From NCBI GenBank assembly GCA_028712365.1, contig JAQTQE010000004.1, positions 13,806 through 77,805 on the forward strand: DNA of 64,000 nucleotides. The letters are read 5' to 3'. This document shows positions 31,638 through 64,000 of the stretch, piece by piece (position 1 is the stretch's first letter; every line of letters begins with the position of its first letter). This DNA comes from a bacterium. GTDB lineage: Bacteria; CAYTYR01; UBA6262. The position numbers were made by a program, and so were the translations under genes. The notes beneath the pieces were generated by a model, which saw only the letters and a list, made by a program, of their open reading frames with translations, was not told the origin of the DNA and did no database searches.

Positions 31638-33815
31638 ATGAATAAGCTAAAATTTATAATACTTACTCTGGTAACAGCGGTAAGTATTTTATTTTTAGTA
31701 TCCCCGGCAGCCGCCGCCCCGAACGCTCCTACCGGATTTACCGCGGTTAATTTTGGCGGGCCGATCAGGCTGGCTTGGACTGCTAGTACCGGAGGGGTAG
31801 GAACAGTCACCTACACTGTTTACCGCGTTGAAGCCGATTCTACTACCATTCCCACAAATCCTCCTACAGGCGCTGGTACTTACGGCGCCTACGCCCAAAC
31901 CGTTACTTTCGGGATCACCAGTACCAGCTATGTCGATACATCAGTGAGTGACGGTACTACTTATTATTACTTTGTCACTGGAAATGACGGTACCGGGGAA
32001 AGCAGTCCCGCTACTACGGTCAGTTCCGCCACTAGTGATTATCCCGATGCTGATGCTGGCTACTATCTGACTCTTTCCGCGACAGAAACAACGATAGACT
32101 ATGAGACCAGTACCTTAGCCAACCCTTCCACCGGGACAATTATTACCTACAATATTAGTGATACAGACCAGGCTGGACACAGGTTTGTCGCGGCTAAGAT
32201 CAATTATGACATAATAGATAATTTTACCGATACTACCATCTATAAAGAAATTCAGGAAATATCCGGAGGTAGCACCGGCATTAATACCGGCCAGATCACC
32301 TGGGATGGCCGCTGGTTCAACACTACCCAGTATACCAAGCATAATGGCTCTTACACTGTTCAAGTTTGGGCTACTGATTTTGCCGGTACCGATCATCCAA
32401 AAGTGACGCTTACTATTACGGTGCACGCGGTGCATGTTAATGATGTGATCCAAACCTTTACCGATTTCGGTACTACTACTATCGCGCATAGCCTGCCGAT
32501 GCATTTTTCCTACCAATTGACCCAGGATGCCTGGACTACCATCACTATATATAATACGAATGGGACCGTGACCACCTCTGATGATACTCTGGTTAAGCGG
32601 TTTACTTATTCCGCGCCGCGCAATAGTGAAGGGCAGGATCGTAATTTCCGTGAATACCAGACCTGGGATGGTACTGATGAAAACATTAAATTAGTGCCAA
32701 CCGGGATTTATCGGTTCGCTATTGATGCTTATTTTGATCATACCGGCGCTGCCGACCGGGACACTGCTGAGGGCCGGGGCTGGACTTTTGCCCTGGATAA
32801 AAGGATCGTGGATATCACCACCACTGGTATTAGTGCCAGCAATGCGCTGGCCAGCATTAAATATACCTTGAGCGAAACTGCCAATGTCAAGATCAAGATC
32901 TGCAAATCCAGCACGACCTTTTCGACTGATAGTACTACCGGTGAAGCGATTCCCAGCCCAGCGGCCAATTTAGTAAAAACTTTTACCTTTTACCAACAAA
33001 GTTCTGGAGAACAGGAAATTACCTGGGACGGCAATGATGAAGGCGGCGTGGCCATGGGAAAAGGCGTATATTTTGTGGTTATAACTGCTACCGACGCGGA
33101 AGGTAATAGGTTCTTTAATACTTCTGGCACTGATAACCTTTTCCGCACCTCTGTTTCCATTGATAAAACCGCTATCCAGATAGCTACTGATTCTACGGCG
33201 CCGACAGTGTCTTCGGTTACCCCGGCTAATGGCGCCATCCTGACCAGTTCATTCACGGAAGTAAGCGCTGTACTGGCGGATAATACCGGAGGATCTGGCG
33301 TGGACCTGGCCAACTCTACTATCACCATGACTGATCCTGGCGGGAGCATTGTTACCGGCACCCAATCCAATAATGGCAGCGATACCATTACGCTGACCGT
33401 TGCCGCGCAAACCATAAACGGTACTTACACTTTACGGATCACACCCAGGGACTTGGTCGGTAATGTAGCGTCGCAAGCAACCTATACTTTCAGTTTGAAT
33501 ACCAGTGGCGAAGAAGGAGATTTTAAGGAATCTGTGTTCATCTATCCGAATCCTGTTAAAGGAAGAAGTGCCACTTTTGCATATTCCCTGGCTGGCGCGG
33601 CTACCGTGACTATTGATGTGTATACTATATTGGGTGAAAAGATCTGGTCAAAAGTGATTTATGATAACAGCTCAGGTGATAAAAGGGTGAGTTGGAGAAT
33701 CATTAATAACGATGGCGAAGTCCTGGCCGATGACTTATACCTGTATAAGATCACAGCTGAATATTCGAACGGCAATACCAGGACTGCCACCAAGAAACTG
33801 ATAATTTCAAAATAG
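31638..33815 (+). CDS. secreted multi-Ig-like-domain protein with FlgD-Ig-like repeats and a T9SS-type C-terminal sorting domain
   Basis: 725 aa. Signal peptide. At least three WDG(R/T/N)D motifs of FlgD-Ig-like domains. C-terminal about 80 aa begins IYPNPVKG and ends KKLIISK, like Por_Secre_tail. Confidence 0.6.
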   Translation: MNKLKFIILTLVTAVSILFLVSPAAAAPNAPTGFTAVNFGGPIRLAWTASTGGVGTVTYTVYRVEADSTTIPTNPPTGAGTYGAYAQTVTFGITSTSYVDTSVSDGTTYYYFVTGNDGTGESSPATTVSSATSDYPDADAGYYLTLSATETTIDYETSTLANPSTGTIITYNISDTDQAGHRFVAAKINYDIIDNFTDTTIYKEIQEISGGSTGINTGQITWDGRWFNTTQYTKHNGSYTVQVWATDFAGTDHPKVTLTITVHAVHVNDVIQTFTDFGTTTIAHSLPMHFSYQLTQDAWTTITIYNTNGTVTTSDDTLVKRFTYSAPRNSEGQDRNFREYQTWDGTDENIKLVPTGIYRFAIDAYFDHTGAADRDTAEGRGWTFALDKRIVDITTTGISASNALASIKYTLSETANVKIKICKSSTTFSTDSTTGEAIPSPAANLVKTFTFYQQSSGEQEITWDGNDEGGVAMGKGVYFVVITATDAEGNRFFNTSGTDNLFRTSVSIDKTAIQIATDSTAPTVSSVTPANGAILTSSFTEVSAVLADNTGGSGVDLANSTITMTDPGGSIVTGTQSNNGSDTITLTVAAQTINGTYTLRITPRDLVGNVASQATYTFSLNTSGEEGDFKESVFIYPNPVKGRSATFAYSLAGAATVTIDVYTILGEKIWSKVIYDNSSGDKRVSWRIINNDGEVLADDLYLYKITAEYSNGNTRTATKKLIISK

Positions 33816-48182: not shown

Positions 48183-49299
48183 CCTGCCCCTGGAAAAAAT
48201 AGTAATTCTTTATGCTCCTTGCGGGGCTGGCCATAAAAAGGCCGCTGAAGCCCTGGCCGGGTATTTTGGCCAACAGGCTGGCCTGGCCGTGGAAATTAAA
48301 GACATACTGGATTTTGCTCCTGCCTGGTACCGTTTCATTTATCGTGATGGATACTATTTATTGGTCAAGAAATTTCCTAGACTATGGTCCTTGCTTTATC
48401 AGGGGACGGAGCTTGGGTATAAAGAACATATCCTGGTCAGGTTCGCCCGTTGGATCGAAGATAGTTTATTTGATCCTTTTTACCGCTACCTGAAACTGGC
48501 CAAGCCGACAGTGCTGATCACTACTCATTTTTTGCCAATTTCCCTGTTAAAGGATATAAAAAGGGATTTCAAGTTTGGCGCCGTGATCACTGATTATTAT
48601 CCGCATAGCCTGTGGGTCAGCAGCCAGGTGGATAAATATTTTGTTGCTTCTGACTATGTAAAACAGGTCTTGCGGCAAAAAGGGGTCCGGGAAGACAGTA
48701 TTGATATAACCGGCATCCCTATCCAGCCGATCGCGGTGACTGGATCTGATCATAAAAAGAATCTATTTACCGTGCTGATTTTAAGCGGAGCCGGGGGGGT
48801 CGGTGACCTCTCTTCGATCATTAAGGGATTAGAGGTATTTACCGGGAAAATGCAGGTGATCGTGAGTACAGGCTTGAACCGGAAACTGCAAGCTAAACTG
48901 GTTCAAGAAGCAAAGGTCAGTACTTTAGACGTTCAGGTGATCGGTTTTACTGATAAGATATATGAATATTACGCCAGCAGTGATATAGTGATCACTAAGC
49001 CGGGCGGTTTAACGGTCACCGAATGCCTGACTTTTGGATTGCCGCTGATCATGATCAATGCCATTCCGGGGCAGGAAGAGGAAAATGCCAAATTTGTGGC
49101 TGAACATCAAGCCGGGATCCTGGTCAAGGATATTAAGCAAATACCGGGAATAATTGATGGCTGGCTGAGTAACCCGTCACAACTTGCCGCTATGAAAGCG
49201 CGAGCTTTAATAACCGCGCCACATGACAGCAATGAAAGGATTTTTAATAAATTGGTACGCAATAAAAATTGTTGCAATAATAATCGGGATAGTGTATAA
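48172..49299 (+). CDS. MGDG-synthase-like / UgtP-type diacylglycerol glycosyltransferase (GT28)
   Basis: 375 aa. N-terminal ILYAPCGAGHKKAAEAL, typical of the MGDG_synth domain. C-terminal GT28 domain. TTG start. Confidence 0.7.
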   Translation: MSNNLPLEKIVILYAPCGAGHKKAAEALAGYFGQQAGLAVEIKDILDFAPAWYRFIYRDGYYLLVKKFPRLWSLLYQGTELGYKEHILVRFARWIEDSLFDPFYRYLKLAKPTVLITTHFLPISLLKDIKRDFKFGAVITDYYPHSLWVSSQVDKYFVASDYVKQVLRQKGVREDSIDITGIPIQPIAVTGSDHKKNLFTVLILSGAGGVGDLSSIIKGLEVFTGKMQVIVSTGLNRKLQAKLVQEAKVSTLDVQVIGFTDKIYEYYASSDIVITKPGGLTVTECLTFGLPLIMINAIPGQEEENAKFVAEHQAGILVKDIKQIPGIIDGWLSNPSQLAAMKARALITAPHDSNERIFNKLVRNKNCCNNNRDSV

Positions 49300-49312
49300 G
49301 ATTTGTAAATTT

Positions 49313-50002
49313 ATGAAAAGGCGAACCATGTTTAGTAAAAAACTATTTTCCATACTGGCCATAACTCTGGCTGTATCCTGGCTGCTGCCGCGCTTTCTTA
49401 TGGCGGAAGAAGAAGCTTTGATCAGGGAAGAATTGAATGAGCGGGGTAAATCCGGGGCCAAACGGCACATGCTCATTTTCAGCGGCGGAGGATATTTGGG
49501 GCGGAACAAACTTTTAGCTGGATATGAAGATTACACTGATAACTATTCCGGCCATTTGGAAGTGCGCATGGGCTTGGCCGCGGTTAAGGAGCGGCCGGAT
49601 ATTGTCATTAGCCTTAATTATGATTTTATGCCGCTGATCTTGCCTGATGGTATATATGGTATGAGTGAAAATATTATTTCCATTAACCTGAATGCCTATT
49701 ATGTTTTTTACGCCCAGCGAAAACTTAATTTCTTTGCCGGCCCTGGTATCGGTTACTATTTTGATACGCTCACTATGGATACGCCGGCCAGTGGCAAATT
49801 AGAGCATCAATACCGGTTTGTCGGATATAATTTAGGTGTCGGCGCTCAGTATTACTTGGATAAATTCATTACCCTGATACCCTTGTTGAAATACCATCAG
49901 ATCAATGAGCCTGGTTCTTTTAAGGCGAAACATTTGGTCTTTCAAGTCGGTTTTAACTACAATTTCGCAGGAACGGATTGGAATAAATGGAAAAAAGACT
50001 AA
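49313..50002 (+). CDS. small outer-membrane beta-barrel protein
   Basis: 229 aa. Signal peptide. Aromatic-rich alternating strands (GYNLGVGAQYY, FQVGFNYNF). Confidence 0.5.
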   Translation: MKRRTMFSKKLFSILAITLAVSWLLPRFLMAEEEALIREELNERGKSGAKRHMLIFSGGGYLGRNKLLAGYEDYTDNYSGHLEVRMGLAAVKERPDIVISLNYDFMPLILPDGIYGMSENIISINLNAYYVFYAQRKLNFFAGPGIGYYFDTLTMDTPASGKLEHQYRFVGYNLGVGAQYYLDKFITLIPLLKYHQINEPGSFKAKHLVFQVGFNYNFAGTDWNKWKKD

Positions 50003-50928
50003 TAACCATTACAACTATGATCCTGGTTGCTCTTACCGGTTGTGATAAGAAAACCACGCCGGTATTGAATGAGCCATCCAGTTCGATCTATGCCATCAGC
50101 GGAGTTTGTACGCAGGTCGAGACCAAGGATTTTCCCAACGCGCGGGCGTTCTGTTCTATTACTGACCAGAATAATTCTCCTTTATTTGATTTTGCCAAGG
50201 GCAATTTCAGCATCGCTGAAGAAGGTAAGCCGGTGGTAGTGGAAGAAGTCAAGAAAGTGGACAATAATGAAGACCCGCTGTCCGTGGTACTGGTACTTGA
50301 CCGTAGTGGCAGTATGAGTGGTACGGCAACCTCTAACCTGGATATCGCGGCTACTAACTTCATCAACAAGCTAGGGGTGAAAGATGAATGTGAAATAGTG
50401 AATTTTGATGATTCGGTAAAAGTGAGCCAGGTTTTTACCAGCAATCATCAATTGCTGGAAAAGGGTATCTCTGATTACGCTGATCTGGGAGGAGCCACGG
50501 CGTTCTTTGATGCTGTAGGACAGGCAGCCACTGATCTCAGTTCCCGTAATGGGCGGAAATTCATTCTGGCCATGACTGATGGATATGAGAATTCCAGCGT
50601 AAACTATCCATATGCTGATCCACTTCATCCTGATCCGACAGCGATCAAAGCTTACGTTAACAGCAAAGGATTATCGGTTTTTATAGTTGGCCTGGGTTAT
50701 GAAATTGATAAGGATATGCTGCGGGAACTGGCAACTGACACGGGAGCGCGTTATTTTGAAGCGACATCTTCCTTTGAACTGGACAACTTGTACCAGCAAG
50801 CTTTAACTCAGTTTAACAATGAAATAGTCATCAAGTTTCGTAGTTTAAGCAATGGCGCGCGCAATTTACGGGTTTATATGAATTACGGTAGTTTTACCCA
50901 ATCCTTTGAAAAGAAATATTCTAATTAG
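49987..50928 (+). CDS. von Willebrand factor A domain lipoprotein
   Basis: 313 aa. Lipobox LTGC. MIDAS motif LVLDRSGSMSG. Confidence 0.75.
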   Translation: MEKRLITITTMILVALTGCDKKTTPVLNEPSSSIYAISGVCTQVETKDFPNARAFCSITDQNNSPLFDFAKGNFSIAEEGKPVVVEEVKKVDNNEDPLSVVLVLDRSGSMSGTATSNLDIAATNFINKLGVKDECEIVNFDDSVKVSQVFTSNHQLLEKGISDYADLGGATAFFDAVGQAATDLSSRNGRKFILAMTDGYENSSVNYPYADPLHPDPTAIKAYVNSKGLSVFIVGLGYEIDKDMLRELATDTGARYFEATSSFELDNLYQQALTQFNNEIVIKFRSLSNGARNLRVYMNYGSFTQSFEKKYSN

Positions 50929-51011
50929 ATGATCCAACTAATTTCATAGATATTTAATAAATCGTACTACTCAGTGTGGAATGGTAATATGGATTTCATT
51001 GTTTCTATTTA

Positions 51012-51046
51012 AAGGCAATTCTCTAATTAAGGGAGTTGCCTTTTTG
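51012..51046 (+). terminator. terminator-like hairpin after the vWA gene
   Basis: AAGGCAA...TTGCCTT stem followed by TTTTGTATTT. Sequence-related to the def leader hairpin. Confidence 0.45.
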
Positions 51047-51062
51047 TATTTAAGGAGGATGT

Positions 51063-51737
51063 ATGAAAAAACTATTCTTTATGACCTTATTGCTTTTAAT
51101 AGGTGTTTTAGCCTATATGAATAACCCTGGCTATGCTTTTACTTTTCTAGATGAACGCACTAAAAGCGTGGGCAAAGACACAGTTGAATATACAATGGAG
51201 ATGGCTAATCCCGTAGTAAATGGTAATTTGAAATATGAAAATGATAAGTTTAAAATTCATTTTGCTATTCGCTTTCATGGTATTGATATGATTATATACA
51301 ATAAGACTGGCAATGCTATAAAACTTGACTATGGTTTATGGGCCTTTAATTATACTAATAATAAGTCTTATAAAGTATACAATTATGTTGGGACTGACGC
51401 AGGTAATAAAAATGCCCCGCCTTTTACTATTGTTGCGCCGGGATCTACCTATAAAGGAGGAGTAACCACAGAGATCAATAAATTTAATATAAGAAAACCG
51501 CAAAACCTTTATAATACATTGATCTTTCCTACAACTGAATATGTGGCCAATGTTGAGAATCCCGAGCCACCTCTTTCATACAAAGGAAAGTCATTCTCTC
51601 TCTCCATGCCTTTGACTATCAATGGAGTTAAAGAAGATTATACCTTCACCTTTAAGATAACGGATGTTAAGATAATAAAGTATGAAAAACAGTGGAAAAA
51701 GGAAGGCGGTTGGTCTAAATCGAAAAAAGCGAAATAA
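51063..51737 (+). CDS. secreted hypothetical protein (low GC)
   Basis: 224 aa. Signal peptide. Lys-rich C-terminus. GC about 30%. Confidence 0.45.
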   Translation: MKKLFFMTLLLLIGVLAYMNNPGYAFTFLDERTKSVGKDTVEYTMEMANPVVNGNLKYENDKFKIHFAIRFHGIDMIIYNKTGNAIKLDYGLWAFNYTNNKSYKVYNYVGTDAGNKNAPPFTIVAPGSTYKGGVTTEINKFNIRKPQNLYNTLIFPTTEYVANVENPEPPLSYKGKSFSLSMPLTINGVKEDYTFTFKITDVKIIKYEKQWKKEGGWSKSKKAK

Positions 51738-51816
51738 CGTGTTTAACGAATATTTTAAAAGAATAATAGATGTTTTAGTCATAGTTGGTTATTAAATGGA
51801 AAGAAGGAAAATTCTT

Positions 51817-52389
51817 ATGAAAAAGGTCCTAGGTTCTTTTTTCCTATTAATTAGTTTGTGTTCTTCTTTATACGGATTTGAGCGGGATACAAACTATGAC
51901 ATTGCTGTTAGTAGCTTCAGCCGTGCAGATATTATACGAGTTTTTAAATACGCTGTTCATTTTAATGAAGTATTTAAAATCAGTACATATGGTGATGAGA
52001 ATTACACAAAGATTAGAAAATTACTTGAACTTTATGATGAAATGATTCTTGCTCCATACTATCGAGGAAGTGTTGAAATTCTATCAAAAAGTAATGATCA
52101 AGAATTAACGCTCGAAATGCTTAAACTATTAATTTCCTATGAGAATTCAGCGGATGAAGAATTATCCTATGGATTAGCTGAGGTGTATGCAAAGAACCCT
52201 AATCTAATTGAAACAACAGTAAAGGAATTTAATATCGAAATACAGAAAGGATTAACTAAAAGACTAGAGGAGTCCTTAAGGCTATTAATAGAAAATAAGG
52301 AAAGGCCAAACATAGAATTACTTCGAAAACGACTTAGGGCTTTTATTGAAACTATTGCTGGGTCAGAAGGCAACGGGGTAAGCCCTTGA
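51817..52389 (+). CDS. secreted hypothetical protein (low GC)
   Basis: Signal peptide MKKVLGSFFLLISLCSS. No motif. Confidence 0.4.
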   Translation: MKKVLGSFFLLISLCSSLYGFERDTNYDIAVSSFSRADIIRVFKYAVHFNEVFKISTYGDENYTKIRKLLELYDEMILAPYYRGSVEILSKSNDQELTLEMLKLLISYENSADEELSYGLAEVYAKNPNLIETTVKEFNIEIQKGLTKRLEESLRLLIENKERPNIELLRKRLRAFIETIAGSEGNGVSP

Positions 52390-52528
52390 AATATGAAGCA
52401 GCTAAGAATTAGAGAAGCTAACATCTTAAGTTTTTGTTGACAAATATATGCTTATAAGATATAAAGATACCCTTTAACCCGGAATTTGCAATAGGATTTG
52501 GAATTCGTCGAAAAATCGCTTTGTCTTT

Positions 52529-54518: not shown

Positions 54519-54559
54519 TAACCAACTACATAGTAAAATGTGGTTGGTTATATTTTTAG
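54519..54559 (+). terminator. terminator-like hairpin in the AT-rich comM-downstream spacer
   Basis: TAACCAACTACAT/ATGTGGTTGGTTA 13-bp stem with one mismatch, followed by TATTTTTAG. Confidence 0.45.
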
Positions 54560-54589: not shown

Positions 54590-55168
54590 GTGAAGAAGGT
54601 ATTGTTTTTTGCATTGTTAATGCTCATGGCAAGTGTTCTGTGGGCTGAAGAGTCAACAGCCCAAGGCACAAAAAAGATTGGTATAGGATATTTTGACAAT
54701 GGCTTGGATCTTGTTTACTGGAAAAACGAGCATAAAGGGATTCAGGCTAATGTCAAGCTATCTGCAAGCAGATTGGGCGACGTATATGATTACGGTAATA
54801 CACAGAACAGTTGGGATTATCGCATCAGATTTGCATTTTTAAGAAAAGTAAAGGAATACGATTTTCTTAAGATTTCGATAGCTTATGGCATAAGCTGGAG
54901 TGATGTAAAAAGCGTACAGAATGCAGATTATTCAATGTACACAAGAACGGCAGTATTACAAGTCGGGCCTATATTTGAAATATTCATGCCTTTTTGTAAA
55001 AACTTATGTTTAGCCAGTGACTTGAAGCTTAATCTTGGCATTACCGTTAGAACTCACGACATACCTGCGAACATGACAACGACTCCAAGAAGGTCCAATA
55101 CCGAAAGTATATATTTTAGCGGCACAGGATTTACCTTGGATACGGTTTCAATAAGGTATTATTTCTGA
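54590..55168 (+). CDS. small outer-membrane beta-barrel protein
   Basis: 192 aa. GTG start. Signal peptide. Ends ...IRYYF. Confidence 0.5.
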   Translation: MKKVLFFALLMLMASVLWAEESTAQGTKKIGIGYFDNGLDLVYWKNEHKGIQANVKLSASRLGDVYDYGNTQNSWDYRIRFAFLRKVKEYDFLKISIAYGISWSDVKSVQNADYSMYTRTAVLQVGPIFEIFMPFCKNLCLASDLKLNLGITVRTHDIPANMTTTPRRSNTESIYFSGTGFTLDTVSIRYYF

Positions 55169-55181
55169 GAAAGAGGATAAG

Positions 55182-56090
55182 ATGATAAAGTTTAAACGAA
55201 ACAAATTTGTATTTATGTTTTTGCTTACGGCCTCGATTCTGCTTGCTTATAATGTTTACGCCGAAAATAACAATCCTGACTATTCCACCAAAGAATCGAA
55301 ATACAAGAAGCATAAGCACGTTAAGAAAAGAGTGAAAGAAATAGAGCGATCGGGAGAGAATTCTGTTCCGAGCCTCATAAGATTATTAAATGATGATGAC
55401 CCAGATACTAGAATATCTGCCATGTCAAGTCTGGGGCGGATAGGAAGTAAGAAAGCAATAGCTCCAATTATAAAATTAATGGAAAATGATAAGGATGATA
55501 ATATAAGAATAAGCGCCGCAACTGTCTTGGGTTATTTAAGTGGAACAGAAGCAATTCCAGCTCTCAAGAAAGCCTTATCAGATAGTAATAAAATGATCCA
55601 AATAAGAGCAGCCGGCTCTCTTGGTATGCTTAACGACGGCTCTGGTTACGCAATTATATTTGGTTATAGCGAGGATGCGGATATCAATGTAAAAGCCAAT
55701 GCTTTGCAGGCTTTTGGCCTTATTGCGGATGAGCGAGCTATTTCTATACTGGGAAAGTACAAGGATGATAATAATTATCGTCTTAGGAAAGCCGCATTAA
55801 TATCTATCAGGCAAATTGGGATTGCCAGAGAGTACAGGATTGCCTTACAGAAAAATGGTAAAAAGGTGGCAGATTATAAGAAGCTTTCCTTGCTTGAATA
55901 TTCTTTATCCGATACCAATCCCATTATAAGAAAGTGGGCGTTGAGAACTCTGATTTTGAGAATAGATGAAAAGGAAGTGGTGGAACTACTTGTAAAAATT
56001 GCCAATAATGACAAGAATCCTTCCCAAGACAACGTTATGGAGGTTCTCAAGAATTATAACATTGCCTTTGATAAGAGAAAGAAGAAATGA
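55182..56090 (+). CDS. secreted HEAT/PBS-lyase-repeat protein (paralog-like of 45854..46741)
   Basis: 302 aa. Signal peptide. Repeated DxxxRxxAxxxLGxxG units. Confidence 0.55.
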   Translation: MIKFKRNKFVFMFLLTASILLAYNVYAENNNPDYSTKESKYKKHKHVKKRVKEIERSGENSVPSLIRLLNDDDPDTRISAMSSLGRIGSKKAIAPIIKLMENDKDDNIRISAATVLGYLSGTEAIPALKKALSDSNKMIQIRAAGSLGMLNDGSGYAIIFGYSEDADINVKANALQAFGLIADERAISILGKYKDDNNYRLRKAALISIRQIGIAREYRIALQKNGKKVADYKKLSLLEYSLSDTNPIIRKWALRTLILRIDEKEVVELLVKIANNDKNPSQDNVMEVLKNYNIAFDKRKKK

Positions 56091-56518
56091 GGAAGAATAA
56101 TTTCCTTTACCGTGTTTTGTTTTTCTTATTAATGTTCTTAGATAGTAATTGCATCGCTGGGGAGAGTCAAATGCAGGTTAGATTGTGGAAAGAATTATCA
56201 ACAGTGAATTTATCTGAATTAAATAGTTATATTAATAGTTTGTCCCTGCTTGCAGATGGGGCGACAGTTCCTTCCATTGATACAATAAAAACTGGAGAGG
56301 CCTCAGGTTGTAGATATGCCCGGATTTCTAAAATGAAACAAAAAGAGAACAATGATACGGCTTTAGTAACAATAACAAACGGCGACCTATTAAGAGATTT
56401 GCTTGGAAACGATATTGTATGTGATTATAGCGGGATAACAATATCCATTTCAGCTAATTTGAGTTTTGAAAGGCAGGAAGATGAAAAAGGCATTGCTTGT
56501 TACATTCTTAATATTTAA
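56087..56518 (+). CDS. secreted hypothetical protein
   Basis: 143 aa. Signal peptide. No motif. Confidence 0.35.
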   Translation: MRKNNFLYRVLFFLLMFLDSNCIAGESQMQVRLWKELSTVNLSELNSYINSLSLLADGATVPSIDTIKTGEASGCRYARISKMKQKENNDTALVTITNGDLLRDLLGNDIVCDYSGITISISANLSFERQEDEKGIACYILNI

Positions 56519-57170
56519 TTTAATAACAATAGCTAAAGTAGGCTCTTGCGAATATACATGGCACCTATTCACAAGTACGCCACCTATTAAGGGAAAAGTT
56601 ATTGATTCGGTTACTGGGGAACCAATCAAAGACGCTATATTGGTGGTGAGATGGTTTAAAGCTAAACCTGCTATTGTGGATACTGCAGACAGCGTTATTC
56701 TTGAAAAAGGCTTTATAACCGATAGTAAGGGAGAATTTACCATCCCTAATAAAATTAATATGCATTTTACTTCCTGGTTTGCCGGGATGGGGATAGGAGT
56801 CATGCATCCTTCATACAGTATTCTGGTTACCGGCCTATCAGACGAGCGAAACAGCCTTTTTTATGCGGATTCAGAATTTAAGAAAGGGATTATCATTGCT
56901 ACTCTCAAGCTGACAAAATTAACTGACAAATATATAAAGCCAGAAGATAATATTAATTTACTTGAAGAGTTCAGCGAAATATTTCCTAAATGCTATTCTT
57001 TGTATTTCAAATGGGCCAAGAAACTGAAGGTTAATACTAATAAAGAAGCTGTATTTAGAAACTGGGATCAAATAATTAACAGATTCCCGGGTGCCCCTAA
57101 ACATCTTGACTTAACTATTGATATAGAAAACGAAAAATCCTTAATTAATAATATAGGGAATGGAGAGTAA
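56481..57170 (+). CDS. secreted hypothetical protein with carboxypeptidase-regulatory-like N-domain
   Basis: GKVIDSVTGEPIKDAILVV resembles the CarboxypepD_reg fold. Start taken at MKKALLV. Confidence 0.4.
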   Translation: MKKALLVTFLIFNLITIAKVGSCEYTWHLFTSTPPIKGKVIDSVTGEPIKDAILVVRWFKAKPAIVDTADSVILEKGFITDSKGEFTIPNKINMHFTSWFAGMGIGVMHPSYSILVTGLSDERNSLFYADSEFKKGIIIATLKLTKLTDKYIKPEDNINLLEEFSEIFPKCYSLYFKWAKKLKVNTNKEAVFRNWDQIINRFPGAPKHLDLTIDIENEKSLINNIGNGE

Positions 57171-57172
57171 TA

Positions 57173-60100
57173 ATGAGGAAAATCATTTTATTTTTAACTT
57201 TATTTATGATTTTGAATTTGTTCTCATTAACTAATCTTTGGTCACATAGTGCAACTGTCGTTCATCCCAAATTATCTGATAAAGCCGTCAGTAATTTAGA
57301 TGCCTTCTTTAATGAGGTTAAGACATATAAAAATCAGATTAAACAAGGGAGCATTGATGAAGATACTCCTATTTGGCAGGTGCTAAATCATTTTTATAAT
57401 CCTATAAATGGTGCCGGTTTTCCAGGAGGAATGCCTACAAACCAGTATGTAAAAGATATATGGGATGCATCAATTTACGAATATTCACAAGGGAATAAAA
57501 CGGAAGCCTATTACCTGTTAGGAAAAGTTGCTCATTTGGTTCAAGATATGTCTGTCCCGGCACATGTTCATATAGACTCGCATTTATTTGGAGATGATTA
57601 TGAAATTTGGTGCAAGGGGCCTGGTGAAACTGGTAGTAATATAATCGGATGTGTTAATACAGCAGAAGGCTATATTACTGTATCTGGCTATGAGGATGCA
57701 ATTGAGCAAATGGCAAGGCTGGGTTATGATTCTTCGAGATTTGAGGCGACATTATATGCTGATTCCAGATCAGTTGATGAAAATTGTGAATTGGCAAAAA
57801 TGTTCCCGGGCTCTATCAGATACATAGTTCCGCTTGACGCTAATACTTTAGATAATGGATTCTGGGAAATTGATAACATTGGGAATTATGATGGAGTGGA
57901 AACCGATAATGGCAGCAATGACTGGTGGGAGATAGATGAATATATTGGCTGGTTCTATATAGAGAATATTGGAGGGGATAGTTATCCAGTAGCTCCCGAA
58001 CAAATAAGAAGTGATATCACCAACCCAAGTACAAATTCGTCAATGGTAAGCAATACCAAATCATTGTACCAACTTTTTGCGGAACAATTAATCCCTTTAC
58101 CCATAAAATATTCCACAGGCTTACTGAAATATTTCTACGATAATCGTCCGCAAATCGTTTATCCTTCAAAGGTAACTAATTTAACGGCAACATCTACTGT
58201 TGATAGCGTTTCTCTTATTTGGGAAGCAGCAACAGAAGGAGCTGCGGTTAAAAACTATGCAATTTATAGAGATAACAGTTATGTAGGTCAAACAAATTCA
58301 ACCACACTGACATTTACTGATATGGGCAGGAGTGCAAACACCATATATGAGTACGAAGTTAGTGCTATTGCGGAAAACGGATTAGAAGGTGAAAAGACAG
58401 GTATAATGGTTGTTACTCAATCTCAGCCCGGCAGCAATGAACCAGTCCCAGTGATAATGAACCAAATTTCCAATATTACTGAGACTACAGCTGTTCTAAG
58501 CTGGTCACAAAGCAATGACGGTAATTTCAAAGAATACAGGATTTATCGTTCCCAGGGAAGTGGTGTTAGTGAAAATTCCACTCTAGTCACAACTATTACA
58601 TCAAGAGCCATTACAGCTTTTACTGACATTGGTTTATCAGAAGCAACAACATATTATTACCGTGTTTACGTATTCAACACTCAAGATTTATCTGCAAAGA
58701 GCAATGAGGTGTTTGCACGAAGTATCGGCAATACAATTCCTGATTTCGCAGTTTCTCCAGAAGACATAAGTATGCAATCAACAAATCCTAATCCTGGAGA
58801 TATTGTTACAATAAATGCTATAATCCACAATATTGGGCAAATACCTCCTGATGACGAAATTGTTGTAAGATTCTATGATGGAGACCCGGCAAATGGCGGA
58901 ATCCTAATTGGTGAAGATAAAAAAAGTTTCTGTTGGGTATTCGGGGGAGATGCCTCTGACACCTATGGAGTTGATTGCGGAATCATAGTTGATGATAATT
59001 TAGAAAAAAGATTATATTTAAGTGATACAAGTTTCCAATTATTCGGCCCAAATAACATTGACCTTGAAGGCAGTAATAGTGCAGGAGGCAAATATTACAC
59101 AGATAATTGTTTAACTGTTGATTTTAATAACGGGGCATGGCAAAATGTTAACATAACTCCTACCCCTCACATAGTCAAGGCATATGATAGTGGATTCATT
59201 CATGTAAGAGTATCCGTTTCGGGTGACTTTGATAGTGGTGGTCACTTTAAGGCTAATTTCCATATACGAGGTCGCAAGGCTAGAGATAATAATCAACCAA
59301 TAGAAGCCTCAGTTAACTGGAATACAAGTAACAGAACCGGTTCCCATGACATCTATGTAGTAGTGGATCCTGATAATATAATAACATCAGAAGTTAACAA
59401 GGGCAATAATATAAGCCATAAGCGTATAAACATTGGTCCCGATAAGCCTGATTTGAACATTACATCAAATGATATAAGCTTCACCAGGGAAACCCTGGAT
59501 GTTACAATTAAGGCAAAAATATCCAACACGAATAATATCGAAGCTAATAATGTGAAGGTGAATTTCTATGACGGGTTGCCTTCTAATAATATTCTTATAG
59601 GAAGCACGACTATACCTAAAATACCCATTCCTCTTCTATCAGGTTCAAAGTCAGGGGATGACTGGGCAACCATGGAAACCGGCATCTTCCAATTGGTAAT
59701 CACTTCAAGCACTGTAGATAATGGAGGCCTGGCACCTGGGACTTATACGGCGCTTAAAAAGAACTGGATATATTCTAATATTTCTTACGGAGATAATTTG
59801 CCTATAAATGTTAATCCGGAAGTGACTGCTAGCCATCACAACAATACTCTGGAAATTTATGAAAAAACTGCCACGGGTTTCAAGACACGAATCTGGACAT
59901 ACGCCGATATATATCAGCCCGGGGTGGCTTTCTCTTATAGGCCGTGGCTATATACCAAAGACCAAATTACTTTCGACTGGTCATTGCCAGAGTATAATAG
60001 TGTGGCGCAGGTTAGTTGGAATATTAACGGATTGTCAGGTAGCCACGACGTTTACGTGGTAGTGGATCCTGATGATAGCATTTCAGAAGTTCAAGAAGAT

Positions 60101-62056
60101 AATAATACTGCCTCAAAATCGATTACTTTTGAAAATCAACCTCCTAATATTCCAGTTGCTCCTTCAGGGCCGATTTCAGGCTATACTACTGAAATTTATA
60201 GCTTTAGCACCTATTCTTCTGATATAAATGGAGATAAGATTAAGTTTGTATTTGATTGGGGAGATGGGACAACCACCGAGACTGATTATGGCGATTATGA
60301 TTACACCGGTAAAGTGATCATGAGTGCCTCGCACACCTGGAGTAGTGAAGGAATATACGATGTAAAAGTCCAGGCAATTGACACTTCTAATTCTTCCACT
60401 GATTTTAGTGAGCCCCTTAAAGCTACCTTGATTCAAAAGTCAGGTTGGGGCTCGGATAATCCAATTACTCCTGGCACAAGAATTGACCGGTTCCCTGAAG
60501 TTGATTCCGATAACTCTGGAAATGTACATATTGCTTGGTTCGGCAAAGGAAGTACGGGAAACATTTATTATCGAAGGCTGATAAATAACGGAAACACATG
60601 GAATGACGAGAGCGACTTTGGCACGGTAACATTAAATGACACTCATTTGCCTATTATAAGAAGCGATAAAACAAGCTCTTTGCAATTGTTATGGGACGAT
60701 TATAGAGCGACCGGGAATTTTGAAATATACAGGAAAACAAGTTCAGATCAAGGATTCTCCTGGACATATCCAGACGAGAATTTCAGTTATACCACAGCTA
60801 ATTCAAGGTTTCCAAGTATTGCAATCAACGGCCAAACCATTCACGCCGTTTGGGCCGAGGGAAATAAAATTCATTATAAGAAAAGCTCAAACGGAGGAAC
60901 AACCTGGTCAAATCCTAGTACCATAATTACAACACCGTTTTTTAATGTTAATAGTAGACTTAATCTTGTTTGCGATTCAACAAGTAATGTGTTTTTAGTC
61001 TGGGCAGGTCAAATGCCGAACGTTGCCTGGGCGATTAAGAATGCGTATTTTTCTTATAGCAAAGATAATGGCAATACATGGCAATCTACCCAAACAATAT
61101 ATTCTGATACTAGTTTTGCAGGTTTTGAACTTAATCCTGATATTACTGTAGATTCATCAAGTAATATTTATATTGTCTATGACACGAAGAGTAATCAAAT
61201 ATTTTATAGAACAGGTGCATGGTCAGGCGGGAATATGGTATTATCCAGTCCAGCGGTGTTAGTATCTGATATCCATAATTCGCAGTATCCGAATATAAGG
61301 GCAGATAGGTCAAACAATTTATATCTGTTCTGGCAAAATGCAAGGGATGGCAACTACGAAATCTATAATAAGTTCAGAAAGGCAGGTGAAACTACTTGGG
61401 GAGCCGATACAAGATTGACTCAGGCAGCGGGAGATTCTTTATATCCCAAGGCAAGTATTACCGGGGGTTATTTGCATTTGGTCTGGCAGGATAATCGTAA
61501 TGGTAATTATCAGATTTATTACAATAGAATGCGTTTACGTCGTGCGCCTTGGGTGATAGATTTTTCTGCGCCTCATTTTGATGTTCCACCATATGATGAA
61601 AGTGTTCCGCCTTATGAAAACAATGATCCTAACCAAACAGCAATATCATTTAAAGTGCAAGATGATACTTATAATAAGCATACAGTGTCAGTATGGGTAT
61701 ATAATGTTAATGGTACCAGTGTGATAAAAAAGCTCATTACTGATCAAATAATCAATTTAGATTCTAATTCTGATCTTAACTGGCCATATATGAAAACTTT
61801 CACTGATTTCGTTATTTGGGATGGGAGAGATGAAAACGGTAATTTTGTGTCAGAATCAACTTCATATAAAGTAAAAATTAGTGTCAGAGCAGTTGATGAT
61901 CCGACAATAGAACCGATTGATGGATTGCCTGGCTTAATTGGCACAAATTGGACAAACATCGATACCACTGATCAAGAATATATTTTTACTGATCCGACCT
62001 TTGTACAGCCTAATCGCAAAAACATCAAAGCTTGGCACGAGTTTATACGGCAATAA
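57173..62056 (+). CDS. giant secreted multidomain protein: Zn-dependent phospholipase C/P1-nuclease-like domain, FN3 x2, CARDB-like, PKD, BNR/sialidase-like propeller, FlgD-Ig-like C-terminus
   Basis: 1627 aa, GC about 33%. The mature N-terminus begins WSH, as in PLC where W1 ligands Zn. AHLVQDMSVPAH gives H, D at +4 and H at +10 with the same spacing as the clostridial alpha-toxin Zn site. FN3 (TYEYEVSA). PKD (FDWGDGT...HTW). Four SxDxGxTW BNR motifs. C-terminal WDGRDENGNFV of FlgD-Ig-like domains. Confidence 0.65.
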   Translation: MRKIILFLTLFMILNLFSLTNLWSHSATVVHPKLSDKAVSNLDAFFNEVKTYKNQIKQGSIDEDTPIWQVLNHFYNPINGAGFPGGMPTNQYVKDIWDASIYEYSQGNKTEAYYLLGKVAHLVQDMSVPAHVHIDSHLFGDDYEIWCKGPGETGSNIIGCVNTAEGYITVSGYEDAIEQMARLGYDSSRFEATLYADSRSVDENCELAKMFPGSIRYIVPLDANTLDNGFWEIDNIGNYDGVETDNGSNDWWEIDEYIGWFYIENIGGDSYPVAPEQIRSDITNPSTNSSMVSNTKSLYQLFAEQLIPLPIKYSTGLLKYFYDNRPQIVYPSKVTNLTATSTVDSVSLIWEAATEGAAVKNYAIYRDNSYVGQTNSTTLTFTDMGRSANTIYEYEVSAIAENGLEGEKTGIMVVTQSQPGSNEPVPVIMNQISNITETTAVLSWSQSNDGNFKEYRIYRSQGSGVSENSTLVTTITSRAITAFTDIGLSEATTYYYRVYVFNTQDLSAKSNEVFARSIGNTIPDFAVSPEDISMQSTNPNPGDIVTINAIIHNIGQIPPDDEIVVRFYDGDPANGGILIGEDKKSFCWVFGGDASDTYGVDCGIIVDDNLEKRLYLSDTSFQLFGPNNIDLEGSNSAGGKYYTDNCLTVDFNNGAWQNVNITPTPHIVKAYDSGFIHVRVSVSGDFDSGGHFKANFHIRGRKARDNNQPIEASVNWNTSNRTGSHDIYVVVDPDNIITSEVNKGNNISHKRINIGPDKPDLNITSNDISFTRETLDVTIKAKISNTNNIEANNVKVNFYDGLPSNNILIGSTTIPKIPIPLLSGSKSGDDWATMETGIFQLVITSSTVDNGGLAPGTYTALKKNWIYSNISYGDNLPINVNPEVTASHHNNTLEIYEKTATGFKTRIWTYADIYQPGVAFSYRPWLYTKDQITFDWSLPEYNSVAQVSWNINGLSGSHDVYVVVDPDDSISEVQEDNNTASKSITFENQPPNIPVAPSGPISGYTTEIYSFSTYSSDINGDKIKFVFDWGDGTTTETDYGDYDYTGKVIMSASHTWSSEGIYDVKVQAIDTSNSSTDFSEPLKATLIQKSGWGSDNPITPGTRIDRFPEVDSDNSGNVHIAWFGKGSTGNIYYRRLINNGNTWNDESDFGTVTLNDTHLPIIRSDKTSSLQLLWDDYRATGNFEIYRKTSSDQGFSWTYPDENFSYTTANSRFPSIAINGQTIHAVWAEGNKIHYKKSSNGGTTWSNPSTIITTPFFNVNSRLNLVCDSTSNVFLVWAGQMPNVAWAIKNAYFSYSKDNGNTWQSTQTIYSDTSFAGFELNPDITVDSSSNIYIVYDTKSNQIFYRTGAWSGGNMVLSSPAVLVSDIHNSQYPNIRADRSNNLYLFWQNARDGNYEIYNKFRKAGETTWGADTRLTQAAGDSLYPKASITGGYLHLVWQDNRNGNYQIYYNRMRLRRAPWVIDFSAPHFDVPPYDESVPPYENNDPNQTAISFKVQDDTYNKHTVSVWVYNVNGTSVIKKLITDQIINLDSNSDLNWPYMKTFTDFVIWDGRDENGNFVSESTSYKVKISVRAVDDPTIEPIDGLPGLIGTNWTNIDTTDQEYIFTDPTFVQPNRKNIKAWHEFIRQ

Positions 62057-62074: not shown

Positions 62075-63376
62075 GTGATCTGGAGAATAAAACCAGTTCT
62101 ATTTGTGTTTATTTCAGCTCTTCTACTTGCTAAACTGTCATTTGCCGATGAGTTAATAGATAATGCCTGGAAGGCGATGCAAGAAGAAAAATATGAAAAC
62201 GCGAACAAAATAGCGCAAGATTGCTTGACCAAATTCATGAATAAGGCCAAAGAACAACAGGGAACATATAGGCAAAAAGCCTTGAAAAAGCAGCAAAGAA
62301 AACAAACCAACGCCAGGATAGCTTTGCTAGGAGATCAGCAAAACGTTTTAACTGAAGAAGATATGCCGAAGAATTTGATTGAAGATCAAGTGGTTTCACT
62401 TGGCTCAGACGAGCTTAATTCAGCCGGTACCGCTTGTTTTATTCAAGGTGAAGTATTAAAAAAAGCTGGGAAAAAGGATGAAGCTAGGAAGAAATATAAA
62501 GAGATAGTTGATAATTATAAAGATGCGTATTGTTACGATCCGAGGGGATGGTACTGGAAGGTGTCAGACGTAGCCCAAGACCGGATAGATGTAATGGATA
62601 CCAAGTATGACTATTCTGATTACACTAGCGAGACTTTAACCGGAAAAGGGTGGAAGTCTTTGAAAGACAAAGACTTCAAGGGCGTAGAACTATATGCCAA
62701 GAAATGCATTTATCTTTATGAGCAAAAAGCAGATGAAATGCAGACAAACACAAAAGGGTTTGTCAAAGACAAAAAAGACGCTCCATATAAATGGGCCTTA
62801 AACGACGTAGCTACCTGTTATTTTATTATGGGAGAGAAATATCTGCTTGAAGGCAAGGATGATCTATCAAAACAGATGTACAAACGAGCTGCTGAACTTG
62901 GGTTCTCATTATGTTGGGACCCACAAGGGTGGTATTGGAAAGTGGGAGAAGTGGCTCAGGATAAGATAGATCTCTACGGCACCAAATATAGCTTTGGAGA
63001 TTATAAATCAGTTACTTTAACCAGTAATGCCTGGCAAGCATTGGCAGATAAAGATTATAAAGGTGTGGATCTGTACTGCAAGAAATGCATTTATCTTTAT
63101 GAAGACAAGGCAAAAGAAATGCAAGCTCAAATAACCGAGTTTCCTAAAGGTAGTTTTGTCCCTTATTACTGGGCTTTAAATGATGTCGCAACTTGCTATT
63201 TCATCATGGCCGAGTCTTATAAACAGCAAAACATGGTTTCCCAAGCTAAACAATATTTGATGACAATAAGCGATCAATTCTCTTTTGCTCAGTGTTGGGA
63301 TAAGCGCGGTTGGTATTGGCAGATAGCAAAAGCCAGCCAGAAATCGTTAGAAGAAATGCAAAAACAAAATCCGTGA
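62075..63376 (+). CDS. secreted protein with internal 125-aa tandem repeats
   Basis: 433 aa. GTG start with GGAGGG RBS. Signal peptide. 2.5 copies of a repeat C(Y/W)DPxGWYWKV..VAQDxID...CKKCIYLYE...WALNDVATCYFIM. Confidence 0.5.
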   Translation: MIWRIKPVLFVFISALLLAKLSFADELIDNAWKAMQEEKYENANKIAQDCLTKFMNKAKEQQGTYRQKALKKQQRKQTNARIALLGDQQNVLTEEDMPKNLIEDQVVSLGSDELNSAGTACFIQGEVLKKAGKKDEARKKYKEIVDNYKDAYCYDPRGWYWKVSDVAQDRIDVMDTKYDYSDYTSETLTGKGWKSLKDKDFKGVELYAKKCIYLYEQKADEMQTNTKGFVKDKKDAPYKWALNDVATCYFIMGEKYLLEGKDDLSKQMYKRAAELGFSLCWDPQGWYWKVGEVAQDKIDLYGTKYSFGDYKSVTLTSNAWQALADKDYKGVDLYCKKCIYLYEDKAKEMQAQITEFPKGSFVPYYWALNDVATCYFIMAESYKQQNMVSQAKQYLMTISDQFSFAQCWDKRGWYWQIAKASQKSLEEMQKQNP

Positions 63377-63479: not shown

Positions 63480-64000
63480 ATGAAAAAATGTTTGATCATC
63501 TGTTTTTTAATTGTTATTTCAATAAAAGCTTATGGACAGACAAAGCCATCTGAAAGCGATTTACACGCGAGAATCACAGTCCCATCTCCATATTCTCTGA
63601 TAAGAGGAGATGTGCCAATCTACGGAATCGCTGGCGGTAAAGACTTTAAGGAATACAAGTTGGAATATGGCTCAGGGGAGAATCCAAGCGTCTGGACAAC
63701 CATTTTGGTATCCAGTCAAGAGCAGGTTAAAGAAAGCAGTGTTCCTAAGATAGATTTCTCCCTGGATAAGACTATTCCCGGGAATTTGGGTATTTGGGAT
63801 ACCGGCTTGTCAGAATACCAATACGGGGAACATAAGGTTGATCTGCCCATAGGGATCTATACTCTTAAACTTACGGTTAAGGATAAATCAGGAAATATTG
63901 CCGAAGACCGGGTAATAATTGAAGTAGGCCGGGTAATAATTAACTCGGTTGCCGGCAAAGTGGAAAGTCCTGATGGACAGGCAATTCATGAGATACCTGA
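63480..64000 (+). CDS. secreted hypothetical protein (5' partial, runs off window end)
   Basis: ATG at 63480 with a signal peptide MKKCLIICFLIVISIKA. The open frame continues to the window end. Confidence 0.4.
   Translation, partial: MKKCLIICFLIVISIKAYGQTKPSESDLHARITVPSPYSLIRGDVPIYGIAGGKDFKEYKLEYGSGENPSVWTTILVSSQEQVKESSVPKIDFSLDKTIPGNLGIWDTGLSEYQYGEHKVDLPIGIYTLKLTVKDKSGNIAEDRVIIEVGRVIINSVAGKVESPDGQAIHEIP

Follow-up and report, generated by a model that had tools for sequence, protein, structure and literature searches.

A giant modular protein with a divergent zinc phospholipase C-type head in a diderm bacterium

A 64,000-nucleotide stretch of contig JAQTQE010000004.1 (assembly GCA_028712365.1, GTDB lineage CAYTYR01; UBA6262), referred to here as the window, carries on its forward strand a gene for a protein of 1,627 amino acids (aa) that is the target of this analysis. 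The target is a divergent modular variant of the zinc phospholipase C (PLC) kind. It is probably a Sec-exported modular exoenzyme, in which a metal site completed by the free N-terminus would hydrolyse phosphodiester bonds, most likely those of phospholipids. The identity of the head was already given by automated annotation, under which the protein (NCBI MDD5131372.1, encoded on an 82-kb contig) has the public name "zinc dependent phospholipase C family protein". The open reading frame (ORF) begins with ATG, has a GGAGAG Shine-Dalgarno-like site 6 nt 5' of it and the stop of the upstream gene 2 nt before the start, and is also found on one Logan contig (L001) with the gene order unchanged.

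The combination of domains in the target is a singleton, whereas the theme of such a head followed by variable extracellular modules is common. A preliminary description of this DNA, made from the sequence, had stated that the architecture matches no known characterised toxin or adhesin. It overlooked that the protein is already annotated in the zinc PLC family and that the head tops thousands of similar giant modular proteins. A search for full-length homologues returned no protein covering more than 20% of the target, with most matches falling in the fibronectin type III (FN3) regions, and a local phmmer comparison with 265 family members gave matches confined to the head, plus FN3 in one member (P0094). 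The parts of the gene that bear on the head are as follows.

57173..62056, forward strand: target ORF, 1,627 aa
57173..57244, forward strand: predicted Sec-type signal peptide, aa 1–24, a hydrophobic N-terminus reading MRK / IILFLTLFMILNLF / SLTNLWS
57245..58156, forward strand: zinc phospholipase C-type all-helical head, aa ~25–328
57533..57565, forward strand: H121-x3-D125-x5-H131 motif AHLVQDMSVPAH (HLVQDMSVPAH), core of the predicted metal site, opposite HYYTDISQPMH of Listeria PlcB and invariant in the family
57743..58054, forward strand: insertion of ~100 residues within the head, aa 191–294, delimited by pLDDT (predicted local distance difference test) below 50 in the deep-alignment model and by the coverage pattern of relatives

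Fold and ligand positions of the head

The head is a real, very divergent domain of the zinc phospholipase C/P1-nuclease fold. The Pfam family Zn_dep_PLPC (PF00882) matches aa 31–131 (profile positions 2–97 of 167) with 31.6 bits against a gathering score (GA) of 26.8 (E = 2e-7). This match sits outside the signal peptide, and the concern of signal-peptide contamination applies to the SMART model SM00770. The hidden Markov model (HMM) of the S1-P1_nuclease family (PF02265) does not match the target at E <= 1, and among the Pfam labels precomputed for the relatives listed, PF00882 occurs and PF02265 does not. When the head was used as a phmmer query, one solved structure was retrieved, that of Listeria PlcB (8cqm, E = 1.9e-6), with IDED/NHFYNP/AHLVQDMSVPAH of the target opposite ADHK/SHFYNP/IHYYTDISQPMH. 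This alignment places a PLC-type HFY(N/D)P signature beside the second His of the head. The H-x3-D-x5-H motif of the target (H121, D125, H131), which is the sole occurrence of this spacing in the six-frame translation of the 64-kb window, is aligned to that of PlcB.

Structure prediction agrees with these sequence matches. An AlphaFold2 model built from an alignment of 108 sequences reaches pLDDT values mostly above 90 over aa 30–190 and 295–325; it supersedes a first model from a 6-sequence alignment (pLDDT 48.5). The intervening insertion is common only to the closest relatives of the target (P0001, P0084, P0091). In a Foldseek search of the PDB with the head model, 17 PLC and alpha-toxin chains come first (E 4e-4 to 4e-2, best probability 1.00), and the S1/P1 nucleases trail at E = 0.5–1.5. 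Every PLC stands ahead of every nuclease by a wide margin in two structure searches. A profile search (A2) of PDB sequences from an untrimmed alignment gave low-complexity artefacts only (TBP, FtsY) and was set aside. The preliminary description had proposed a PLC-like head with the metal-site spacing of alpha-toxin and P1 nuclease, and had named the absence of any HMM or structural match to this fold as the observation that would count against it. With a significant HMM match and a Foldseek ranking led by PLCs, such an absence is clearly not what was found; the proposed head is borne out by a Zn_dep_PLPC score above gathering, by the match to 8cqm and by the conservation of all ligand positions, and the spacing is indeed there.

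The conservation of these positions was read from a family alignment of 266 sequences (the target and P0001–P0265), 254 of which have an N-terminal head core. The candidate metal ligands are the N-terminal residue together with H31, D64 (with E63), H73, H121, D125, H131, H137 and E144. Among the 254 relatives, E63, H73 and H121 are retained in all 254, D64 and D125 in 253, H131 in 252, H31 and H137 in 250, and E144 in 249. Five of these residues (D64, H73, H121, D125 and H131) lie opposite matching residues of 8cqm, and the other three (H31, H137 and E144) are assigned as ligands by their invariance (249–254 of 254).

This pattern bears on whether the target might be mainly a structural adhesin or surface-layer component, with the head as a non-catalytic, ligand-binding cap. 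Such a pseudo-enzyme would accord with a protein of which ~80% consists of Ig-like or propeller modules, with the 100-residue insertion in the head and with the uncertainty over the canonical N-terminal Trp (Trp-1). All eight side-chain ligands are nevertheless present and are 98–100% conserved across the 254 relatives, which is the mark of a maintained metal or catalytic site rather than a decayed one, and the strict N-terminal placement of the head has been kept. We therefore regard a pseudo-enzyme as unlikely.

The predicted free N-terminus and the probable substrate

In known PLCs the third metal (metal 3) is bound through main-chain atoms of the N-terminal Trp. The enzymes of Bacillus cereus and of Listeria monocytogenes (LmPC-PLC) need a free N-terminus, made by processing, and one additional N-terminal residue abolishes activity (PMC10576769). 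The W1F variant of the Listeria enzyme is active, while W1A, W1E and W1K are inactive (PMC10576769). The target has two candidate cleavage sites for signal peptidase, after Ser24 (favoured) or after Leu22. With a slash marking cleavage, the target reads LWS/HSATVVH, where His25 occupies the N-terminal position of the family; a start at Trp23 would place Leu at position -1 of the cleavage site. Across the family, 84% of the N-termini are of the form [AGSC]/Tyr, 5–6 residues before the first invariant His, and Leu, Phe, Trp or His is the first residue in others. Many cleavage sites have Trp at -2 (VWA/Y, SWA/Y, IWA/F), and VFA/H and VYS/H are also seen. In the target, counting back from the first His, position -6 is His and position -8 is Trp, a departure from the [AGSC]/Tyr terminus of Patescibacteria-type heads; [AS]/His is rare, with 5 cases among 254 members. 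Both the homology within the family and the -3/-1 rule make His25 the more likely mature N-terminus, and not Trp23, as the preliminary description had it. The closest relative, P0001, keeps both residues (ELWAH) and has an NA/Y site upstream, which leaves the choice of cleavage site ambiguous.

In the mechanism that we propose, the target would be exported by Sec, and signal peptidase would free an N-terminal residue, most likely His25 or alternatively Trp23. The alpha-amino and carbonyl groups of this residue would complete a trinuclear metal site, as in the known zinc phospholipases C, with side chains predicted to come from H31, D64, H73, H121, D125, H131, H137 and E144. Such a role of the N-terminal residue would explain why the head always lies directly behind the signal peptide. 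The head would then hydrolyse a phosphodiester bond, the likeliest substrate being the glycerol-phosphate bond of phospholipid head groups, with diacylglycerol and a phosphorylated head group as products. The ~1,300 remaining residues comprise two FN3 domains, two insertion-bearing CARDB domains, a PKD domain, the Asp-box propeller of seven units and, last, an Ig-like module. After a presumed passage across the outer membrane they would serve as a stalk and as binding modules by which the enzyme is kept at, or directed to, a surface, be it the cell's own envelope, a prey or host, or a polymer. That the target is a predation or host-interaction factor is speculation.

Several observations weigh against an active exported phospholipase. 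The canonical N-terminal Trp is not secured in the target, the identity of the head to characterised PLCs is 14–21%, and the ligand set is deduced from the 8cqm alignment and from invariance. A Pfam scan finds in the target no PLAT/C2 membrane-binding domain of the kind present in alpha-toxin, and no outer-membrane export or anchoring signal is recognisable although the host appears to be a diderm. In the literature, the head family was not found described in Patescibacteria (candidate phyla radiation, CPR), nor was an assay of any member of the clade. Lastly, the fusions of related heads to thermonuclease and lamin-tail domains would fit a nucleic acid or another phosphodiester substrate equally well.

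This last point belongs to a wider alternative, in which the head, a zinc phosphodiesterase from this same superfamily, would act on a non-lipid substrate, such as extracellular nucleic acid (as in S1/P1), teichoic-acid-type polymers or phosphodiester-linked glycans, and in which the propeller and Ig-like module bind the polymer. Several relatives fuse the head to the thermonuclease domain PF00565 (P0078, P0099, P0118, P0294, P0298) and many others to a lamin-tail domain, and the BNR/Asp-box propeller of the target is a module usually linked with glycans. The N-terminal arm is also short, with the first His of the family 5–6 residues from the predicted N-terminus. The corresponding spacing is W1...H6 in P1 nuclease and W1...H14 in BcPLC, and that of the family is nearer the former. 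On the other side stand the silence of the S1-P1_nuclease HMM, the placing of all PLCs above all nucleases in both structure searches, the HFY(N/D)P signature beside the second His and the occurrence of PF00882, but never of PF02265, among the labels of relatives. The last ligand is a Glu, as is the last metal ligand of PLCs. A non-lipid substrate is the strongest of the alternatives but the less likely reading, and a phospholipid remains our favoured one.

Relatives of the head and comparison with known enzymes

With the head alone as query, a word-indexed search gave 5 relatives, and 287 were found with a profile. The cluster representatives returned by an exhaustive profile search numbered 11,774 at E <= 1e-3 and 1,402 at E <= 1e-30, a count raised somewhat by a lamin-tail domain that the query profile contained as well. 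When one genome for each GTDB species was scanned, 228 relatives were confirmed, and the figures given below for loci refer to the best 80 of these. The 80 are overwhelmingly from Patescibacteria, with a single one from Elusimicrobiota and a single Lindowbacteria metagenome-assembled genome (MAG). The PF00882 label is present on about 15 of the 120 relatives listed, so that most of the head clade is dark to Pfam. Three relatives have the whole head including the insertion, namely P0001 (41% identity), P0084 and P0091. The last of these, a protein of 586 aa (L083 4888–6648), is encoded on a contig that also carries genes of archaeal type (prefoldin, ribosomal L18Ae, ThiN), and the head family accordingly appears to cross the domain boundary.

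In all relatives examined the head is N-terminal and directly behind a signal peptide, as it is in the target, where the ligand set is identical to that of Patescibacteria-type heads. Complete head-bearing ORFs at the related loci have a median length of 1,200 aa (range 202–1,669), and none has a C-terminal transmembrane (TM) helix or LPXTG motif. Lamin-tail domains are the commonest fusion partner of the head, and others include thermonuclease, beta-helix, PQQ propeller, FN3 and Big domains. Directly 5' of the head gene in 69 of the 80 loci is a gene of ~170 aa, anchored by an N-terminal TM segment and marginally DUF4878-like (NTF2-like), which lies on the strand of the head gene at a median gap of 14 nt (loci L002–L081; for example L030 7454–7972, with the head gene from 8001). 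Partner and head gene are a conserved two-gene module in Patescibacteria, and possible roles of the partner are those of inhibitor, immunity protein or chaperone. An hmmsearch for this partner among all ORFs of the window gave nothing at E <= 10.

The uncharacterised giant lamin-tail and hypothetical proteins of Patescibacteria (for example P0008, P0029, P0121–P0265) resemble the target in having a signal peptide followed by the head, with identical ligand columns and then 700–1,900 aa of variable modules. They differ in their [AGSC]/Tyr N-terminus (84%), in their lamin-tail, thermonuclease or beta-helix modules and in the DUF4878-like upstream partner (69 of 80 loci), none of which is seen in the target, and local identity outside the head core is 27–41%. 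Another non-Patescibacterial giant of this type is encoded in the Lindowbacteria MAG (L077 7866–17105; at least 3,080 aa), where the head is matched over residues 3–321 and is fused to beta-propeller modules. This protein has 15 FG-GAP/VCBS stretches and UnbV_ASPIC, and no FN3, CARDB, PKD or BNR; its head is 27% identical to that of the target.

Among characterised enzymes, the PC-PLC of Bacillus cereus (1AH7) and PlcB of Listeria monocytogenes (8CQM) have in common with the target HFY(N/D)P, H-x3-D-x5-H and the full set of ligand positions. Both are single-domain Firmicutes toxins of ~245 aa with an N-terminal Trp, and in Listeria a propeptide, at 14–21% identity to the target head. The target, in contrast, has a head insertion of ~100 aa, an N-terminal arm that is shorter and starts with His or Trp, ~1,300 further residues and a diderm host. 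The alpha-toxins of Clostridium perfringens and C. absonum (1CA1, 1OLP) are like the target in joining a PLC head to a C-terminal targeting module; this is one PLAT/C2-like domain in the toxins, and FN3, CARDB, PKD, propeller and Ig-like modules in the target. The S1/P1 nucleases (1AK0, 5FB9, 3W52 and SmNuc1 8QJL) are a clearly weaker structural match with no HMM match, and the signatures of the target are PLC-type.

Homologues of LmPC-PLC have so far been described only in Bacillus and Clostridium (PMC10576769). The known enzymes of this type are a handful of Firmicute toxins, and here the same metal-site scaffold is found on giant modular exported proteins of uncultured lineages, with most relatives of the head carrying Tyr or His where PLCs have an 'invariant' Trp-1. 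If members of the clade are active lipases, they would be obvious candidates for the enzymes with which lipid-auxotrophic episymbionts obtain the membranes of their hosts or attack them, and the small partner gene of Patescibacteria becomes a candidate inhibitor. The target head (aa 25–330) is well delimited, expressible and non-Patescibacterial, and hence offers an entry point to the substrate and the Trp-1 requirement of the clade. A further-reaching scenario, which we consider improbable in full, is that the target is a horizontally acquired, non-Patescibacterial offshoot of a vast 'free-N-terminus' zinc phosphodiesterase clade, with which ultra-small lipid auxotrophs (Patescibacteria and some archaea) would harvest or breach host membranes. 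In this scenario the head would have gained a new stalk and propeller in the diderm, giving a contact-dependent effector that attacks membranes or scavenges lipids. Its export would depend neither on an anchor nor on a type IX secretion system (T9SS) C-terminal domain (CTD), and a His or Tyr N-terminus would be a functional stand-in for Trp-1.

Stalk, propeller, tail and gene neighbourhood

The modules that follow the head are all of extracellular binding or stalk types.

58166..58708, forward strand: two fibronectin type III domains (Pfam fn3), aa 332–407 and 431–512
58739..59416, forward strand: CARDB domain 1, N-half aa 523–571 and C-half aa 718–748, split by a nested insertion of ~145 aa
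59480..60118, forward strand: CARDB domain 2, apparently split like CARDB 1, C-half aa 943–982 (27.1 bits)
60185..60403, forward strand: PKD domain, aa 1005–1077 (Pfam PKD, 28.5 bits against a GA of 23.5)
60479..61582, forward strand: BNR/Asp-box beta-propeller-like region, aa ~1103–1470, seven repeat units of ~52 aa
61634..61897, forward strand: probable Ig-like beta-sandwich, aa ~1488–1575 (VSVWVYNVNG...WDGRDENG), with FlgD-Ig resemblance at the level of motifs only
61898..62056, forward strand: C-terminal extension of 52 residues and stop codon

Much of the stalk had been anticipated in the preliminary description, and its two FN3 domains, CARDB-like domains and PKD domain are all recovered by Pfam. 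The FN3 domains score 22.9 and 37 bits when scanned separately and 35.1 bits in the whole protein, and the NCBIfam CbhB FN3 region matches aa 329–508. Four CARDB-matching stretches fall within aa 510–1010 and make up two domains. In the first, Pfam profile positions 2–46 and 71–99 fall on the two separated segments; the N-half of the second gives no match when scanned alone, and its boundary is approximate. The insertions in the CARDB domains (aa 523–982 region, 58739..60118) match no Pfam family and look like nested domains. Self-BLAST of aa 326–1085 gave no significant internal repeats, and the paired FN3 and CARDB domains are thus divergent.

A propeller had likewise been proposed, with "four-blade-plus" BNR repeats. 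The propeller itself is supported by BNR_2 (PF13088), which scores 33.8 bits against a GA of 31.4 with this region alone (27.1 bits, below GA, in the full protein), but the number of units is seven, with anchors at aa 1119, 1171, 1224, 1274, 1333, 1384 and 1435 in an alignment of the units. Asp-box-like motifs occur in units 1–4 and 6, three of them strict, one loose and one reading 'AGETTW' in unit 6. A BNR_2 score above gathering for the region alone, together with phmmer matches of the target to sialidases in the PDB (E = 0.011–0.02), might suggest that the catalytic centre is the propeller, acting as a sialidase-like glycosidase, and that the head is accessory. These sialidase matches are weak, not significant, and confined to the Asp-box segments, and Asp-boxes are structural motifs, not catalytic ones. 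The BNR_2 match is also limited to profile positions 77–191 of 277, and the seven short repeats of ~52 aa differ from the six long blades of sialidases. A sialidase-centred protein is accordingly unlikely.

The proposed FlgD-Ig-like tail fared less well. Pfam and NCBIfam scans of aa 1461–1627 gave no match even at E <= 10, FlgD_ig (PF13860) included, while a protein encoded in the same window (31638..33815, forward strand, 725 aa), which served as a positive control for the tail searches, has FlgD_ig repeats at 53 bits. What remains of the FlgD-Ig assignment is the WDGRDENG motif and a weak pairwise BLAST match of the tail to these repeats (E = 0.017). The control protein also has Big_13, TIGR04183 (32.9 bits) and Por_Secre_tail (32.2 bits), and this T9SS CTD indicates that the organism has type IX secretion cargo. 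Judged from its genes, which include an ORF like an outer-membrane protein (OMP) beta-barrel as well as this CTD protein, the host is a diderm with such cargo. In the target itself, no T9SS sorting domain (TIGR04183, PF18962 or CHU_C) was found at E <= 10 on aa 1461–1627 or at E <= 1 over the full length, and its C-terminus has no T9SS CTD, TM helix or LPXTG.

The genes that surround the target are the following.

54590..57170, forward strand: four genes 5' of the target, all for exported proteins, of 192 aa (ending in ...IRYYF), 302 aa (HEAT repeats), 143 aa (an orphan) and 234 aa (weak CarboxypepD_reg similarity)
62075..63376, forward strand: 433-aa exported TPR-like repeat protein (weak TPR matches)
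63480 to beyond the window end at 64000, forward strand: orphan exported protein of at least 600 aa

Seven co-directional genes thus fill the stretch from 54590 to the end of the window, and each of their products has a signal-peptide-like N-terminus. A terminator-like hairpin lies at 54519–54550, just 5' of the cluster, and none lies inside it; the four upstream genes and the target are probably one transcription unit. GC content at third codon positions (GC3) is 0.31–0.39 in the seven-gene cluster, against 0.47–0.55 in housekeeping genes and the T9SS cargo gene, which upholds at synonymous sites the low-GC island described earlier. The low GC3 and the layout of the cluster may reflect an operon of foreign, horizontally acquired origin. 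Family scans of the neighbours give no functional clue to the target. In the 433-aa protein, three repeats of D[PK]xGWYW[KQ][VI]...D..Y.....Y can be seen by eye, and self-BLAST gave the identity alignment only. With the TTG at 56466 taken as its start, the ORF just upstream of the target (56466..57170) shares 53 nt with the ORF before it (56087..56518); the Logan gene call for 56466..57170 begins 15 nt downstream with a product of 229 aa, and the true start of this gene is uncertain.

At its start the window carries a dcw cluster together with housekeeping genes (RsmH, FtsI, FtsA, IleRS, CoaBC, PriA), all on the forward strand. An Rfam scan of the window gave no match, no tRNA genes were detected in it, and a promoter scan was at chance level. 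Nearly all ORFs of at least 150 aa, including all with an assigned function, are on the forward strand, and the GC skew, taken over successive 2-kb segments of the 64 kb, is almost always positive. A second low-GC patch is found at 50000..52500 (35.6–37.7% GC), with two ORFs (51063..51737 and 51796..52389) without Pfam or NCBIfam match; just 5' of these are a VWA-domain protein (49987..50928) and an OMP beta-barrel-like protein (49223..50002).

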